A DNA stretch of 37,205 bases from IMG/VR virus record IMGVR_UViG_3300022179_000455, positions 1 through 37,205 of that record; one strand, given 5' to 3'. The position numbers were made by a program, and so were the translations under genes. Position 1 is the first letter of the stretch, and each line of letters starts with the position of its first letter. Shown here piece after piece: positions 1-37,205 of this stretch. Below the pieces are notes generated by a model that was given only the letters and a program-made list of their open reading frames with translations, was not told where the DNA came from and ran no database searches. The stretch comes from a virus. Lineage: Duplodnaviria > Caudoviricetes.

Positions 1-590
1 AAAGGAAGCATACCAGTGAATTCTTTAGAACTAACATAGACGCCATCGCCACCCAGCGTAATAACGATAGCACCGATATTAAAATTACGACGAACAAGTT
101 CACATTCATCGAAATCTTGCCGACCTGCAAATTCGAAAAATTCTTTTTTATTCAATTTTATAATATCCGCGCCGATGTACCGATGCAGTTTTTTCTTAGG
201 ATCAACAATAACCTTCACGCCAGCTTTTTTAAAATTTTCGATAATAGTTTCTGAATGGTGCAAATAACCTTTGTTGTAATCGGAAATAACAAGCCAATCG
301 ATTCCAATCGGATTGTATTCTGTAAAGTCGTTTATCTCATAGGTTTCGTTATCGCTACGAAAAACAATTCTATTATCGACTACGTAGCGCGTCTTAGTCG
401 AACTACAACCACAGTCGAAATAAGGATCAGAACCCAATGATGTTAAATTGGCGATTACGTTCCAAGCACCACCAGCTCGTTTTACAACTTTATCTTCTTT
501 GAAAATAGGGATTGGCGTTTCTGGAGATATTTTAGTATATGAACCGTAAATATATTCGTCACTGATACCATCACCAATAACATAAATCAT
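1..590 (-). CDS. PfkB/ribokinase-family sugar kinase, HldE/RfaE domain I-like (heptose-7-phosphate kinase); runs off the window start
   Basis: Not in the ORF track. Manual translation from ATG at 590 gives MIYVIGDGISDEYIYGSYTKISPETPIPIF...RAGGAWNVIANL, matching the RfaE 'VIGD..LD.Y..G...RISPEAPVP...GGA.NVA.NL' signature. Later segments include VIVDPK, IIKLNKKE and IVITLGGDG. ATGA overlap with the upstream gene's stop. Confidence 0.85.
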   Translation of the reverse strand, partial: MIYVIGDGISDEYIYGSYTKISPETPIPIFKEDKVVKRAGGAWNVIANLTSLGSDPYFDCGCSSTKTRYVVDNRIVFRSDNETYEINDFTEYNPIGIDWLVISDYNKGYLHHSETIIENFKKAGVKVIVDPKKKLHRYIGADIIKLNKKEFFEFAGRQDFDECELVRRNFNIGAIVITLGGDGVYVSSKEFTGMLP

Positions 591-943
591 TTTTGAGAAT
601 CTCCAGGTAATACGCGATAATTATCTTCAGCCGAATCAGCAGTTGAAACTTCTACAATAACAGAATTATCTTCTAGAGCTACCAGCTGGTGCGGAAGCAA
701 CGGTGGGTTTCTCCAAGTGTCTCCTGGATTTAGGGCGATTTCTCGAACGTTCGCATCTGACGTATCGATTATTTTAAGAAGAAAAGCTCCGTTCAAAACA
801 ACCCACGTTTCGTCTTTTTCCTTGTGAAAATGCATACTCATCTTAGAGCCAGCTTTTTCAAATTGAAGAAACTTACCAGCGTAATGCTCGTTAGAAGCGA
901 AAATAGTTTCTTTACCCCAACCTTTTTCTACATCTGCACTCAT
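587..943 (-). CDS. Cupin-fold protein (mannose-6-phosphate isomerase / sugar isomerase-like)
   Basis: Motifs KGWGKE, SMHFHKEKDETW and PLLPHQL...VEVST...DNYRV. Strong RBS AAGGAGATATAAC precedes the ATG at 943, so the start is shorter than the ORF track's 961. Confidence 0.75.
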   Translation of the reverse strand: MSADVEKGWGKETIFASNEHYAGKFLQFEKAGSKMSMHFHKEKDETWVVLNGAFLLKIIDTSDANVREIALNPGDTWRNPPLLPHQLVALEDNSVIVEVSTADSAEDNYRVLPGDSQK

Positions 944-966
944 GTTATATCTCCTTTTCATATTCT

Positions 967-994
967 ATTATACTAGTATTTTCAAAAAAGTAAA
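967..994 (-). promoter_or_regulatory. Sigma70-like promoter TTTACT-N16-TATAAT driving the cupin/kinase operon
   Basis: Reverse complement reads TTTACT tttttgaaaatactag TATAAT. Same form as other early promoters in the window. Confidence 0.65.
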
Positions 995-1004
995 GCTCAA
1001 ATTT

Positions 1005-1012
1005 TATAAATA
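1005..1012 (+). promoter_or_regulatory. T4-type late promoter TATAAATA
   Basis: Exact gp55-dependent consensus, about 30 nt upstream of the tail-fibre gene. Confidence 0.8.
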
Positions 1013-1043
1013 ATCAAAATAACACCATTGGGGAAAGGGAACC

Positions 1044-2864
1044 ATGGCTGATAAAGATTTCGTCGTCAAGAACGGTCTTCGCACCGTTGGCAACACTATC
1101 GTTGCAAACTCTTCGCAGATATCTCTAAACTCGAATGTTGTCGTAGATAATTCGGCTTCTTTTACTGCCAATGGTAGTTCTGGGTCTGCTGGTCAATTAC
1201 TAGCCTCCAACGGCACTGGTATTTATTGGACCACTCCGACGACCCTTACTGTAAACCAAGCAGCTCAATATTCTTGGACAAATACTCATTCTTTTAGCAA
1301 CACTGTTACATTTAATGGAAACGCTGCTATCAGCACTCTTTCTGCGAATGGTGGGTTCGGTTCGGCTGGGCAAGTTTTAATTTCGGGCGGAACAAGTTCT
1401 AATGCTTATTGGGCTGCTACGCCAGTTAATGTTGCTGCTACATATAGCTGGACAAATGTTCATACATTTTCCAATACGCTCACAATAACAGGATCGGGCG
1501 GTAGGCTTTTTCTTGATGGTATTCCTATTACTGCTAACGGCAGCAATGGTACTTCTGGTCAGGTACTCGCTTCAAACGGTTCTACTGGTTCTCCTTATTG
1601 GGTTACTCCTGGTACTGGTACTGTTAGTCAGGTAAATACGGGTGTTGGTTTAACTGGCGGACCAGTTAGCACTACAGGAACGATTTCTGTAAATCCTAAT
1701 ACTGGTATCGTTGCAAATAGCACTGGCGTTTTCGTATCTAATACCTATGTTAATACTTCTTCAAATTTCACAGTAAACGGTCAGTTAACTTTTTCAAATG
1801 TAACGACGTTTAATTCTAACGCTGCTTTTGCTGCAATTTCAGCTAACGGTAGTTTTGGAACAGCGGGTCATGCTCTTTTCAGTGGTGGCGGTACAACAAA
1901 TAACTACTTCAGTAATGTTGTAACTTCCGTTTCTGTTACAGCTGGCCAGATAGCTGCAACATACAGTGGCGCTAATCCAACTCTTGGTCTAGCAACCACA
2001 GCCGTAACTGCTGGTTGTTACGCGGCTCCTACTCTTTACGTTGACTGCTATGGTAGAATTACAGCTGCAGCTAATGGTTCTGCAGGTAGCGGAACTGTTA
2101 CACAAGTTGATACAGGTGTTGGTCTTGTCGTAGCGGGTGGTGCGGACGCTAATACGATTTGCACCTCAGGAACAATATCCCTTGCTACAGCTGGTCCTGG
2201 CGCAGCAACTTATGGCGCTACGGGTGGTGGTGTTTCCTGTATCTGTGTTGATGCCTACGGTAGAATTGGCTCTATTACAACGCCAACATGCGGCTTCGCT
2301 ACTTGCGGTTATGTTAATGGACAAGGATTTGTTACAAGCGCAGTAACTTCTTTGTCTGGCGGAACTGGCGTGTCGGTTTCTGGCTCTACGGGTTCAGTAA
2401 CAGTTTGCATAGCGCAAGCAGTTGGCACAACTTCTAGTGTTCGTTTCGGTTCGTTTGGTGTCGGAACATCAGCAACAGGAACTACTGGCGAAATAGTTGC
2501 TACTGGAAACATTACTGCATACTATTCCGATAAAAGACTTAAAAAGTGCATCAATCCTATAGAAAACGCTCTTTGCAAAGTTACACAAATTTCTGGCGTA
2601 ACTTATCGTAGTAATGAAGTTGCAGAAAAATATGGTTATAAAGACGATGGCGAACAAGTTGGTGTTATTGCTCAAGAAGTTGATGCAGTACTACCGCATG
2701 CTGTTAAACCAGCACCATTTGATACTGAGTGGATTAATGGTGTTTCGAAATCTATTTCTGGCGAAAACTATAAAACTGTTCAATATGAAAAAATAGTTCC
2801 GTTGTTAATCGAAGCAATTAAAGAATTAACAGCTAGAGTTGAAGTATTAGAAAATAAGGGCTAA
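1044..2864 (+). CDS. Tail fibre protein with C-terminal intramolecular chaperone (peptidase S74) domain
   Basis: Gly/Ser/Thr/Asn-rich repeats (ANGS.G..GQ.L.S.G, YSWTN.H.FSN, VD.YGRI). S74 autocleavage motif 'ITAYY|SDKRLK', GVIAQEV, and C-terminal 'YEKIVPLLIEAIKEL' coiled coil. Confidence 0.85.
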   Translation: MADKDFVVKNGLRTVGNTIVANSSQISLNSNVVVDNSASFTANGSSGSAGQLLASNGTGIYWTTPTTLTVNQAAQYSWTNTHSFSNTVTFNGNAAISTLSANGGFGSAGQVLISGGTSSNAYWAATPVNVAATYSWTNVHTFSNTLTITGSGGRLFLDGIPITANGSNGTSGQVLASNGSTGSPYWVTPGTGTVSQVNTGVGLTGGPVSTTGTISVNPNTGIVANSTGVFVSNTYVNTSSNFTVNGQLTFSNVTTFNSNAAFAAISANGSFGTAGHALFSGGGTTNNYFSNVVTSVSVTAGQIAATYSGANPTLGLATTAVTAGCYAAPTLYVDCYGRITAAANGSAGSGTVTQVDTGVGLVVAGGADANTICTSGTISLATAGPGAATYGATGGGVSCICVDAYGRIGSITTPTCGFATCGYVNGQGFVTSAVTSLSGGTGVSVSGSTGSVTVCIAQAVGTTSSVRFGSFGVGTSATGTTGEIVATGNITAYYSDKRLKKCINPIENALCKVTQISGVTYRSNEVAEKYGYKDDGEQVGVIAQEVDAVLPHAVKPAPFDTEWINGVSKSISGENYKTVQYEKIVPLLIEAIKELTARVEVLENKG

Positions 2865-2866
2865 TT

Positions 2867-36413: not shown

Positions 36414-36462
36414 AAATACTTCGCTGTTTGACAATAGATCAAAGTTGAAATGACCGTAAAGG

Positions 36463-36573
36463 TTGTTTCTTCATGGATACGCCAAGGCATTGATCGTGCC
36501 TCGCTCTGGCAGCAGCTACACCTTTGGTGTGGTGGACGGCTTCAACACCGTTGGCGTATCTTTGAAGAAACAA
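36463..36573 (+). ncRNA. Candidate structured ncRNA (long closing stem with multibranch loop)
   Basis: 36463-36485 pairs with 36551-36573 (21 Watson-Crick pairs, one G-U, one mismatch). Internal hairpins GGCA/TGCC, CTACACC/GGTGTGG and CGG/CCG. Confidence 0.55.
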
Positions 36574-36576
36574 TTT

Positions 36577-36653
36577 CCGTGTGTAGCGCAGCCTGGTAGC
36601 GCATCTGGTTTGGGTCCAGAGGGTCGGGAGTTCGAGTCTCTCCACACGGACCA
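36577..36653 (+). tRNA. tRNA-Pro (TGG)
   Basis: Acceptor CCGTGTG/CACACGG-A-CCA, anticodon arm TCTGG-TTTGGGT-CCAGA, T-loop TTCGAGT. Confidence 0.96.
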
Positions 36654-36909
36654 TTATACGTTCTTCTTCTTATTCTGTTCGGAAGATAGAGCTTGGAATG
36701 AGCAGAACGGGGTATGAGTCCCAAGAACAGTCCAAATTTATACGTGCACCGCAAGACACAATTACGCTGAAAAGGATTTAGTCACCCGAGTAGAGCGTAT
36801 GGAAACTTGTGCCTCTGGGTGTAACAGTGACTCGTTACATTCGTTAGAGACAGAGGGCGCTGTTACCGAGCAGCTGGCGAGATGGGAGGACCATCATCGG
36901 TAATTATTT

Positions 36910-36984
36910 TCCCTCATGGCGCAGCGGTAGCGCAGTTGACTGTTAATCAATTGGTCGGTGGTTCGAATCCATCTGAGGGAGCCA
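36910..36984 (+). tRNA. tRNA-Asn (GTT)
   Basis: Acceptor TCCCTCA/TGAGGGA-G-CCA, anticodon arm GTTGA-CTGTTAA-TCAAT, T-loop TTCGAAT. Confidence 0.96.
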
Positions 36985-37111
36985 GAACGAGCCCTTTAGC
37001 GTTGAAACAGACTAGGGTGATGGTAAATGATTCTCTCCTATCCTGCAGGACTAATAGGAGACGCTTAAATAGCCATCCGTCGCCAGACTACGATAGTGTC
37101 TGGAGCTTTTC

Positions 37112-37187
37112 GCGGGATTAGCTCAGTGGTAGTAGCGTCTGCTTTACACGCAGAATGTCGGGAGTTCGACCCTCTCATCCCGCACCA
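37112..37187 (+). tRNA. tRNA-Val (TAC)
   Basis: Acceptor GCGGGAT/ATCCCGC-A-CCA, anticodon arm TCTGC-TTTACAC-GCAGA, T-loop TTCGACC. Confidence 0.96.
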
Positions 37188-37205
37188 GTTTGCCAGCAAT
37201 AGAGT

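Follow-up and report, generated by a model that had tools for sequence, protein, structure and literature searches.

The window analysed here—the whole stretch of 37,205 bases of the IMG/VR virus record IMGVR_UViG_3300022179_000455—is a fragment of a T4-like phage genome. By Pfam it carries gp13–gp23, UvsY/W, gp55, gp47/46, gp45/44/62 and regA, with matches to T4-like neck, terminase, sheath, portal, capsid, gp47/46 and clamp genes; the nearest capsids are those of DLP6 (68% identical) and phiM12 (65%). Between gp46 and gp45 lies a variable slot, which here holds a gene cluster around a Tet/JBP dioxygenase. In the same window, several short palindromes are missing or nearly so. We regard it as very likely that these missing sites reflect avoidance of type II restriction, and a comparison of relatives suggests that a thymine shield limited to TpG and TpC steps probably decides which sites stay exposed. 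The slot contains the following genes:

24948..25331, plus strand: MazG-like nucleotide pyrophosphohydrolase, heading the slot
25386..26714, plus strand: Tet/JBP 2-oxoglutarate (2OG)-Fe(II) dioxygenase, predicted DNA thymine hydroxylase (PF12851, 70.4 bits, cut-off 34.9)
26711..27487, plus strand: protein of 258 amino acids with a class I S-adenosylmethionine (SAM)-dependent methyltransferase fold (predicted structure, predicted local distance difference test (pLDDT) 91.6)
27471..28628, plus strand: amino acid:DNA transferase (aGPT-PPlase2) homologue (29% to ViI gp247, E 4e-22)
28625..29158, plus strand: P-loop nucleotide kinase 3, candidate 5-hydroxymethyluracil DNA kinase (PF18751, E 2e-11)
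29162..30510, plus strand: DUF3310 gene and glycosyltransferase-like gene, closing the slot

The dioxygenase (442 amino acids) bears the HxD...H...R motif, and at least 97% of 96 homologues share its H297, D299, H348 and R360. Its methyltransferase-fold neighbour has no C5-DNA-methylase match in Pfam; a structure prediction from the single sequence reached a pLDDT of 37 only. In the transferase homologue, E279 and C283 are conserved, ViI gp247 being described in the available text of PMC8989533 as a serine:DNA transferase. The kinase matches Ploopntkinase3 above the cut-off, its alignment to ViI gp243 being limited to the P-loop. Sequence searches of the PDB gave nothing significant for the 258-residue protein, the transferase or the kinase, and phiW-14 gp109 gave no significant match in sequence comparison. 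TATLEGFFA at the end of the dioxygenase and ITLDNFF at that of the methyltransferase-fold protein are similar to the DNA polymerase tails of relatives (ATLDSFFA in DLP6, ATLEDFFG in contig G001); both tails are likely to dock onto the sliding clamp. The DUF3310 and glycosyltransferase-like genes accompany every module type described below and are hence not specific to a thymine pathway.

Words in the window were counted against a maximal-order Markov expectation and against 300 synonymous-codon permutations over 35,385 coding bases, which keep all proteins and the codon usage; non-palindromic and bipartite sites were covered by the k-mer lists only. A first-pass annotation had read by eye that CCGG is absent and GGCC nearly absent where tens of each would be expected. 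The computed counts agree: CCGG occurs 0 times—none of the 228 CCG is followed by G—and GGCC 3 times, at 1944, 9532 and 13928 as that annotation had stated. Expected are 31.2 and 42.4 copies under the Markov model (Poisson P 3e-14 and 5e-15) and 39.6 and 47.1 under the codon null, whose lowest permutations still hold 27 and 28. The depletion runs through all four quarters of the window. CGCG, GCGC and GATC, noted earlier as common, are close to expectation (91/99, 114/106 and 170/170, observed/Markov expected), and GAATTC and GGATCC are indeed present, with six and four copies. Overlooked had been AAGCTT, the lowest hexamer, with 0 copies against 16.7 (Markov) and 18.0 (codon null, minimum 7). 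GGTACC and GGCGCC likewise count 0, and CTTAAG, ACGCGT and GAGCTC occur once each. The set of avoided sites is not T-free, though CCGG and GGCC hold no T. At the level of composition, CC/GG dinucleotides (0.79) and CCG fall short of expectation, while CCA is the most and CAG the third most over-represented trinucleotide.

The same gaps recur in separate contigs of close kin (L002, L003, G018, L081 and L381) and are hence not an assembly artefact. When the window is pooled with six related sequences (117,647 bases), CCGG stands at 0/79 and GGCC at 10/124 (observed/expected), GGTACC at 0 against 14–17 and CTTAAG at 5 against 18–34. The AAGCTT gap is not common to L005, where six of the eight pooled copies sit. 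The survivors in the window that matter below are:

1944..1947: GGCC in the context TGGCCA, 5' T on both strands; codons GCT GGC CAG, synonymously avoidable
9532..9535: GGCC in the context TGGCCA, 5' T on both strands; codons CGT GGC CAG
13928..13931: GGCC in the context GGGCCA, 5' T on the minus strand; codons GGG CCA
30553..30558: sole CTTAAG, in the context TCTTAAGA, 5' T on both strands

The CTTAAG contexts of L002, L003 and L381 match that of the window, and the four may be one inherited site.

In relatives, the slot holds one of four alternatives: a Tet/JBP module with varied partner genes, a T4-type dCMP hydroxymethylase (E 3e-82), genes of the 7-deazaguanine pathway (QueC, GTP cyclohydrolase I, PTPS, QueF), or nothing recognised ('none'). 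Tet/JBP and hydroxymethylase occur together in 0 of 173 sequences. On a gp45+gp44 tree—a quick tree of 69 rows—the module labels are interspersed, at least seven changes being forced by well-supported branches. The sister contig L002 is 98% identical to the window over gp45+gp44; there, Tet/JBP and a TAGT glycosyltransferase replace the window's three downstream genes, which, judged from the sequences, is a recent module swap. A link of the gaps to the transferase and kinase genes alone was rejected, as L002 with its glycosyltransferase module has the same gaps. Searches of 13 Tet/JBP records, three of them near complete, returned no Dam, C5-methylase, N4/N6-methylase or thymidylate-synthase-family match, and a phage Dam as the cause of the kept GATC was dismissed, PF02086 being matched in 0 of 20 records. 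C48C1 carries an annotated DNA methyltransferase and Cr30 a full-length thymidylate synthase match. In the records of DLP6, Cr30 and S-CBWM1, the Tet/JBP homologue bears the annotation 'SNF2 DNA repair protein'.

The other slot types have features of their own. The dCMP-hydroxymethylase modules (L108:6393-7589; G009, G022, G023, G024) often hold a C5-DNA-methylase-like gene (PF00145, E ~1e-20) accompanied by sugar enzymes, in genomes whose C is presumably hydroxymethylated. The deazaguanine contigs G016, G035–G038, G043, G045 and G047 avoid only AAGCTT, AACGTT or GGTACC. In G025 (L374:832-2607) and G027 (L367:1112-2805), the slot is filled by a TAGT glycosyltransferase and a methyltransferase-like gene; neither contig has a Tet/JBP or thymidylate-synthase match, and TG/TC sites are avoided in them. 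G005 (L145:1899-3497), a complete genome, encodes a 533-amino-acid protein with a weak N6/N4-methylase match and purges many sites, yet retains GAATTC, GATATC and CATATG.

A site in a given genome (a cell) was called strongly avoided at an observed/expected ratio (O/E) <0.3 and P<0.001. An initial survey took 87 representatives from the loci of at least 8 kb. Among the testable Tet/JBP representatives, 22 of 38 strongly avoid a GC-only 4-mer, versus 0 of 31 with a hydroxymethylase; for loci below 22 kb, the figures were 9/22 and 0/30. The main sample consists of 50 long contigs (28–173 kb)—20 Tet/JBP including the window, 15 hydroxymethylase, 8 deazaguanine and 7 'none'—with two unplaced contigs counted apart and few near-duplicates (top 16-mer shares 0.22 and 0.13). 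T-free sites are purged in 14 of the 20 Tet/JBP contigs, in none of the 15 hydroxymethylase and 8 deazaguanine contigs, and in six of the seven 'none' contigs. The T-free avoidance of Tet/JBP contigs, set against 0/23 in the C/G modifiers (p 5e-7), argues against a global C or G modification.

These data separate what the first-pass annotation had concluded into parts. Its view that host restriction sites are selected against is upheld: the depletion survives the Markov and codon nulls and vanishes in C/G-modifying relatives. Its link of T-free avoidance to the cluster is not, since 'none' contigs avoid these sites as often (6/7 versus 14/20, Fisher p 0.63), an outcome that it had itself named as refuting. 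It had also argued that a thymine modification could not shield sites without T, so that their loss would speak for T as the modified base. This argument fails, as AAGCTT is equally absent and 'none' relatives avoid GGCC (phiM12, for example, 12/137); T-free avoidance alone does hence not indicate thymine. Its preference for T over C can be kept on other grounds, namely the relief in C modifiers, the sparing of TG/TC sites and the T-flanked GGCC.

For the sparing of TG/TC sites, palindromes were classed by the T step they contain. The strongly avoided cells distribute as follows:

Tet/JBP: T-free 23/162, terminal T 2/100, TA/TT only 12/596, TG 1/349, TC 1/521
'None': T-free 12/58, terminal T 5/35, TA/TT only 4/196, TG 18/127, TC 15/169
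Hydroxymethylase: T-free 0/139, terminal T 0/85, TA/TT only 1/462, TG 2/266, TC 2/377
Deazaguanine: T-free 0/53, terminal T 0/38, TA/TT only 4/246, TG 0/141, TC 0/194

TG/TC sites are strongly avoided in 2 of 20 Tet/JBP contigs versus 6 of 7 'none' contigs (p 6e-4), or in 2/870 versus 33/296 testable cells. They make up 2 of 15 distinct avoided sites in Tet/JBP contigs versus 19 of 32 in 'none' (p 0.004; 0.003–0.02 over four thresholds). TA/TT-only sites (AAGCTT, GGTACC, GTAC) are avoided in 12 of the 20 Tet/JBP contigs. Mean O/E values, taken over the sites avoided in some contig and a few common ones, are for Tet/JBP, 'none' and hydroxymethylase contigs 0.97, 0.52 and 0.96 at TG sites, 0.90, 0.57 and 0.98 at TC sites, 0.73, 0.73 and 0.94 at TA/TT sites, and 0.62, 0.55 and 1.07 at T-free sites; this choice of sites biases the 'none' means low, whereas the TG/TC comparison of Tet/JBP with hydroxymethylase contigs is not so biased. 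The window itself has means of 0.96 (TG), 0.74 (TC), 0.54 (TA/TT) and 0.36 (T-free). A TpC-only rule was superseded by that of TG plus TC, and a 5'-ApT rule fits fewer sites, since CTGCAG, CAGCTG, GCWGC and CGWCG are spared. The TG/TC pattern was found in the counts prior to the comparison with PMC6449724.

In the available text of that paper, a flanking TG is proposed to hinder the cutting of GC-only sites, a suggestion that leads to a test within single genomes: surviving sites without a 5' T on either strand (unflanked) are counted, with an expectation from near-sites. In the 10 Tet/JBP contigs with a GGCC O/E <0.5, 0 of 141 survivors are unflanked (42.0 expected)—DLP6, one of the ten, has no survivors at all, with GGCC at 0/250—and in 14 further short loci 0 of 29 (9.4 expected). 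After removal of GGNCC overlaps, the count is still 0/124 (28.4 expected). 'None' contigs show 59/152 (55.5 expected), and the flank ratios lie at expectation in 'none' (1.06), hydroxymethylase (1.00) and deazaguanine (1.07) contigs. For CGCG in Tet/JBP contigs, 1 of 53 is unflanked (23.4 expected). Retention follows the number of flanks, GGCC having an O/E of 0.03–0.20 unflanked, 0.37–0.49 singly and 0.66 doubly flanked, and CGCG 0.04–0.34, 0.63–0.96 and 1.33; for both cores alike, every unflanked hexamer (six per core) ranks lower than any singly flanked one, and these in turn lie below the doubly flanked one. In the window, all three GGCC are T-flanked, two of them on both strands, and 25 of 91 CGCG are unflanked (40.7 expected), a count as low as in 3 of 500 codon permutations. 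The flank bias appears with three downstream modules—kinase/transferase, glycosyltransferase and a third—so that the preference for TpS (T ahead of G or C) likely lies at the shared dioxygenase. Shielding via a terminal T and its 3' neighbour was tried and set aside, being present for AAGCTT in five selected contigs and absent in the pool. The Trp-Pro dipeptide, which would force TGGCC, occurs 0 times versus 3–5 expected over all coding genes of the window; it is low in every group, at 0.56–0.67 in C/G modifiers and 0.27 in GGCC-depleted Tet/JBP contigs.

Four cultured phages were compared on 50-kb stretches. ViI avoids only T-free sites and TATATA and has a GGCC flank bias (23/107, 43 expected); it also avoids GGSCC, which can explain part of this bias. 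The bias is also found in phiW-14 and is absent in phiM12. RB49, an independent control whose bases we take to be unmodified, avoids TC/TG sites and has no GGCC flank bias (11/21, 8.5 expected). In the isolates DLP6, Cr30, C48C1 and phiM12, the flank bias is weak or beyond the reach of the test.

Taken together, these observations are probably explained by the following mechanism. Acting on finished DNA, the dioxygenase would turn T into 5-hydroxymethyluracil. A bulky group would then be added by the kinase and the amino acid:DNA transferase, perhaps with a last step by the methyltransferase-fold protein. Decoration would be limited to T ahead of G or C, TG being decorated more fully than TC. 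Sites with a decorated TG or TC step would resist cutting and thus escape selection, whereas T-free or TA/TT-only sites would remain cuttable and be purged by point mutation. A decorated T immediately 5' of a GC-only site would partly hinder the enzyme and leave T-flanked survivors. We lean slightly towards the ParB-free Tet/JBP enzyme itself selecting TpG/TpC, the site gaps then being a negative print of the phage's DNA chemistry.

Site avoidance, T-dioxygenase clusters and the TS motif are each known, and a lack of CCGG and GGCC is by itself nothing unusual. Rusinov et al. 2018 (PMC6286503) described type II restriction-site avoidance in lytic double-stranded DNA phages, coliphages with a hydroxymethylase avoiding 2.4% of sites versus 55.8%. 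As there, 4–6 bp palindromes are nearly lost here and the avoidance is gone in dCMP-hydroxymethylase relatives; unlike the full relief via C modification given in its available text, the relief here is partial and sorted by T context. The word 'thymine' occurs 0 times in that paper. Phage T-dioxygenases have been described by O'Toole et al. 2026 (PMC13229309) as 5mYOX clades C1 and C2. The window resembles these, as far as their available description goes, in a Tet/JBP gene without a C5-methylase beside a transferase and a P-loop kinase, T oxidation being sequence-limited there; by eye against Dataset S11, it has clade C1-like motifs and a C-terminal extension. It differs in having no ParB, in its length (442 versus ~300 amino acids) and in the apparent preference—TG then TC here, NTG/NTA for 5mYOX176 and NTC for 5mYOX97. 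Clades A and B, with a C5-methylase partner and GpC-centred protection, are not matched, as a C5-methylase match is lacking and GGCC is purged. The authors left the role open, with a leaning towards an epigenetic-like or regulatory function; the site pattern here points to defence instead.

The third comparison is with phages M6, ViI and phiW-14, for which TS-specific thymidine hypermodification is reported (Flodman et al. 2019, PMC6449724; Lee et al. 2021, PMC8989533), their digestion-resistant sites being rich in TG or TC (50–58%, PMC6449724). As far as these accounts go, the likeness lies in the transferase homologue with its conserved Glu and Cys and in the spared TG/TC sites, here a genomic pattern with exceptions. 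These phages build 5-hydroxymethyluracil into all their DNA; here, the dioxygenase would supply this base. Their dUMP hydroxymethylase route, by which the base is supplied ahead of replication, is unmatched in the 13 Tet/JBP records searched for the thymidylate-synthase family, the window being a fragment. The kinase has been proposed to pick TS in them, but kinase-less relatives here share the signature. Among cultured relatives, DLP6, Cr30 and C48C1 have Tet/JBP dioxygenases (40–45% identical) and phiM12 has none; all four have other partner genes and other hosts. We found no prior report, in mainly open-access literature, of the complementary avoidance pattern or of T-flanked survivors.

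A plainer account, which we consider unlikely but worth taking seriously, is avoidance unrelated to the module: the host would have enzymes against CCGG, GGCC, AAGCTT and GGTACC, and the group contrasts would come from different hosts and overlapping hexamer enzymes. It agrees with L002, whose downstream genes changed while the gaps did not, with 'none' contigs avoiding T-free sites equally often, and with the CCGG flank bias of RB49, a phage without known base modification. It accounts less well for the dioxygenase being retained in L002, and for a GGCC flank bias that lies within genomes, is absent from 'none', hydroxymethylase and deazaguanine contigs, outlasts GGNCC removal and keeps a dose order over ten hexamers and two cores. 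Very unlikely, in our view, is that the methyltransferase-fold neighbour makes methylcytosine as the substrate of the dioxygenase, C then being modified in a context which leaves CCGG and GGCC open. The two genes do adjoin, and the tested enzymes, in the available report, oxidise 5-methylcytosine about equally to T in vitro. Yet a C5-methylase match is absent, the transferase belongs to the thymidine pathway, and the methyltransferase-fold family has 12 members versus 100 for the dioxygenase in the slots examined, contigs without this neighbour sharing the signature. The known phage 5-methylcytosine dioxygenases are moreover GpC-specific, as far as described, and should protect GGCC, which is purged here.

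The gaps could also be a mutational effect without restriction, host-methylated CCGG and GGCC eroding by 5-methylcytosine deamination or phage oxidation. CCA and CAG are over-represented as expected from CCGG decay, but AAGCTT and GGTACC are lost too and the loss is complete across 118 kb of kin (CCGG 0/79), which makes this account highly improbable; the missing Trp-Pro of the window also speaks against it, though this dipeptide is low in all groups. The chance that the gaps are a side effect of base composition, codon usage or assembly is, to us, next to negligible. The low CC/GG and under-represented CCG would fit, but codon permutations never fell below 27–28 copies, the Markov null is likewise against it and independent contigs repeat the gaps; a codon or composition cause is ruled out by the two nulls.

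The thymine shield probably remains the better account, but a number of observations weigh against it. Part of the contrast between the groups could stem from differing enzyme sets of the hosts. Six of the seven 'none' contigs are probably one lineage, and G026, G028 and G042 do not span the slot; 'none' may also not mean unmodified, given the glycosyltransferase and methyltransferase-like gene of G025/G027 and the weak match of G005. The T-step classes were drawn post hoc, the later batch consisting of one Tet/JBP and one 'none' contig. Exceptions among Tet/JBP contigs are GATC at 0.37 in G046, GGATCC 0/7 in G014, CCWGG 9/37 in G019 and TGTACA, low in 4 of 16 testable contigs; phiW-14 has CGATCG at 5/17. 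A 3' C/G brings no pooled benefit to AGCT, AAGCTT or AGCGCT, and Trp-Pro forces 30 of the 141 GGCC survivors. When applied to CCGG, the flank test is not specific (RB49 17/109 unflanked, 67.5 expected), and G027, a 'none' contig, has a CGCG flank bias (29/120). In the window, three flanked GGCC out of three are by themselves not significant (p 0.33), T-flanked GGCC number 3 of ~29 expected and T-flanked CCGG 0 of ~14, and TC sites at a mean O/E of 0.74 with GAGCTC at 1/6.6 indicate a weak shield. According to PMC13229309, NTG and after it NTA are the preferred contexts of the clade C1 enzyme tested, whereas TA sites are purged here. ParB-less C1 enzymes are reported there as inactive, and Pfam finds no ParB in the window; one of 20 records has a match, under the cut-off.

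The remainder of the window holds further features. On its minus strand, opposite to the structural genes, lie PfkB sugar-kinase and cupin genes (3-961), a pair which we take to resemble nucleotide-sugar synthesis genes. It is followed by a 606-amino-acid Gly/Thr/Ser-rich fibre-like protein with a C-terminal Peptidase_S74 chaperone domain (1044-2864). A peptide deformylase and a pyrimidine-dimer-glycosylase-like gene stand ahead of the slot (23930-24951), and tRNA-Pro, tRNA-Asn and tRNA-Val lie at 36577-37187.

One slot that holds a T-, C- or G-modifying module or none amounts to a natural experiment, and the flank test on survivors is an inexpensive way to probe uncultured phages within a single genome. 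The thymine shield predicts cutting of the phage DNA by enzymes of the HaeIII, MspI, HindIII and KpnI types, and not by those of the PstI, BglII and SphI types; HaeIII, MspI, HindIII, KpnI, PstI and BglII are, as we take them, labels for sites and not host assignments. With the pattern described here, the question of defence or regulation left by PMC13229309 becomes directly testable. If the reading is true, the modified base of uncultured phages and its context might be called from sequence alone, and the missing sites would be evolutionary evidence for dioxygenase-primed thymine modification as a natural anti-restriction armour.

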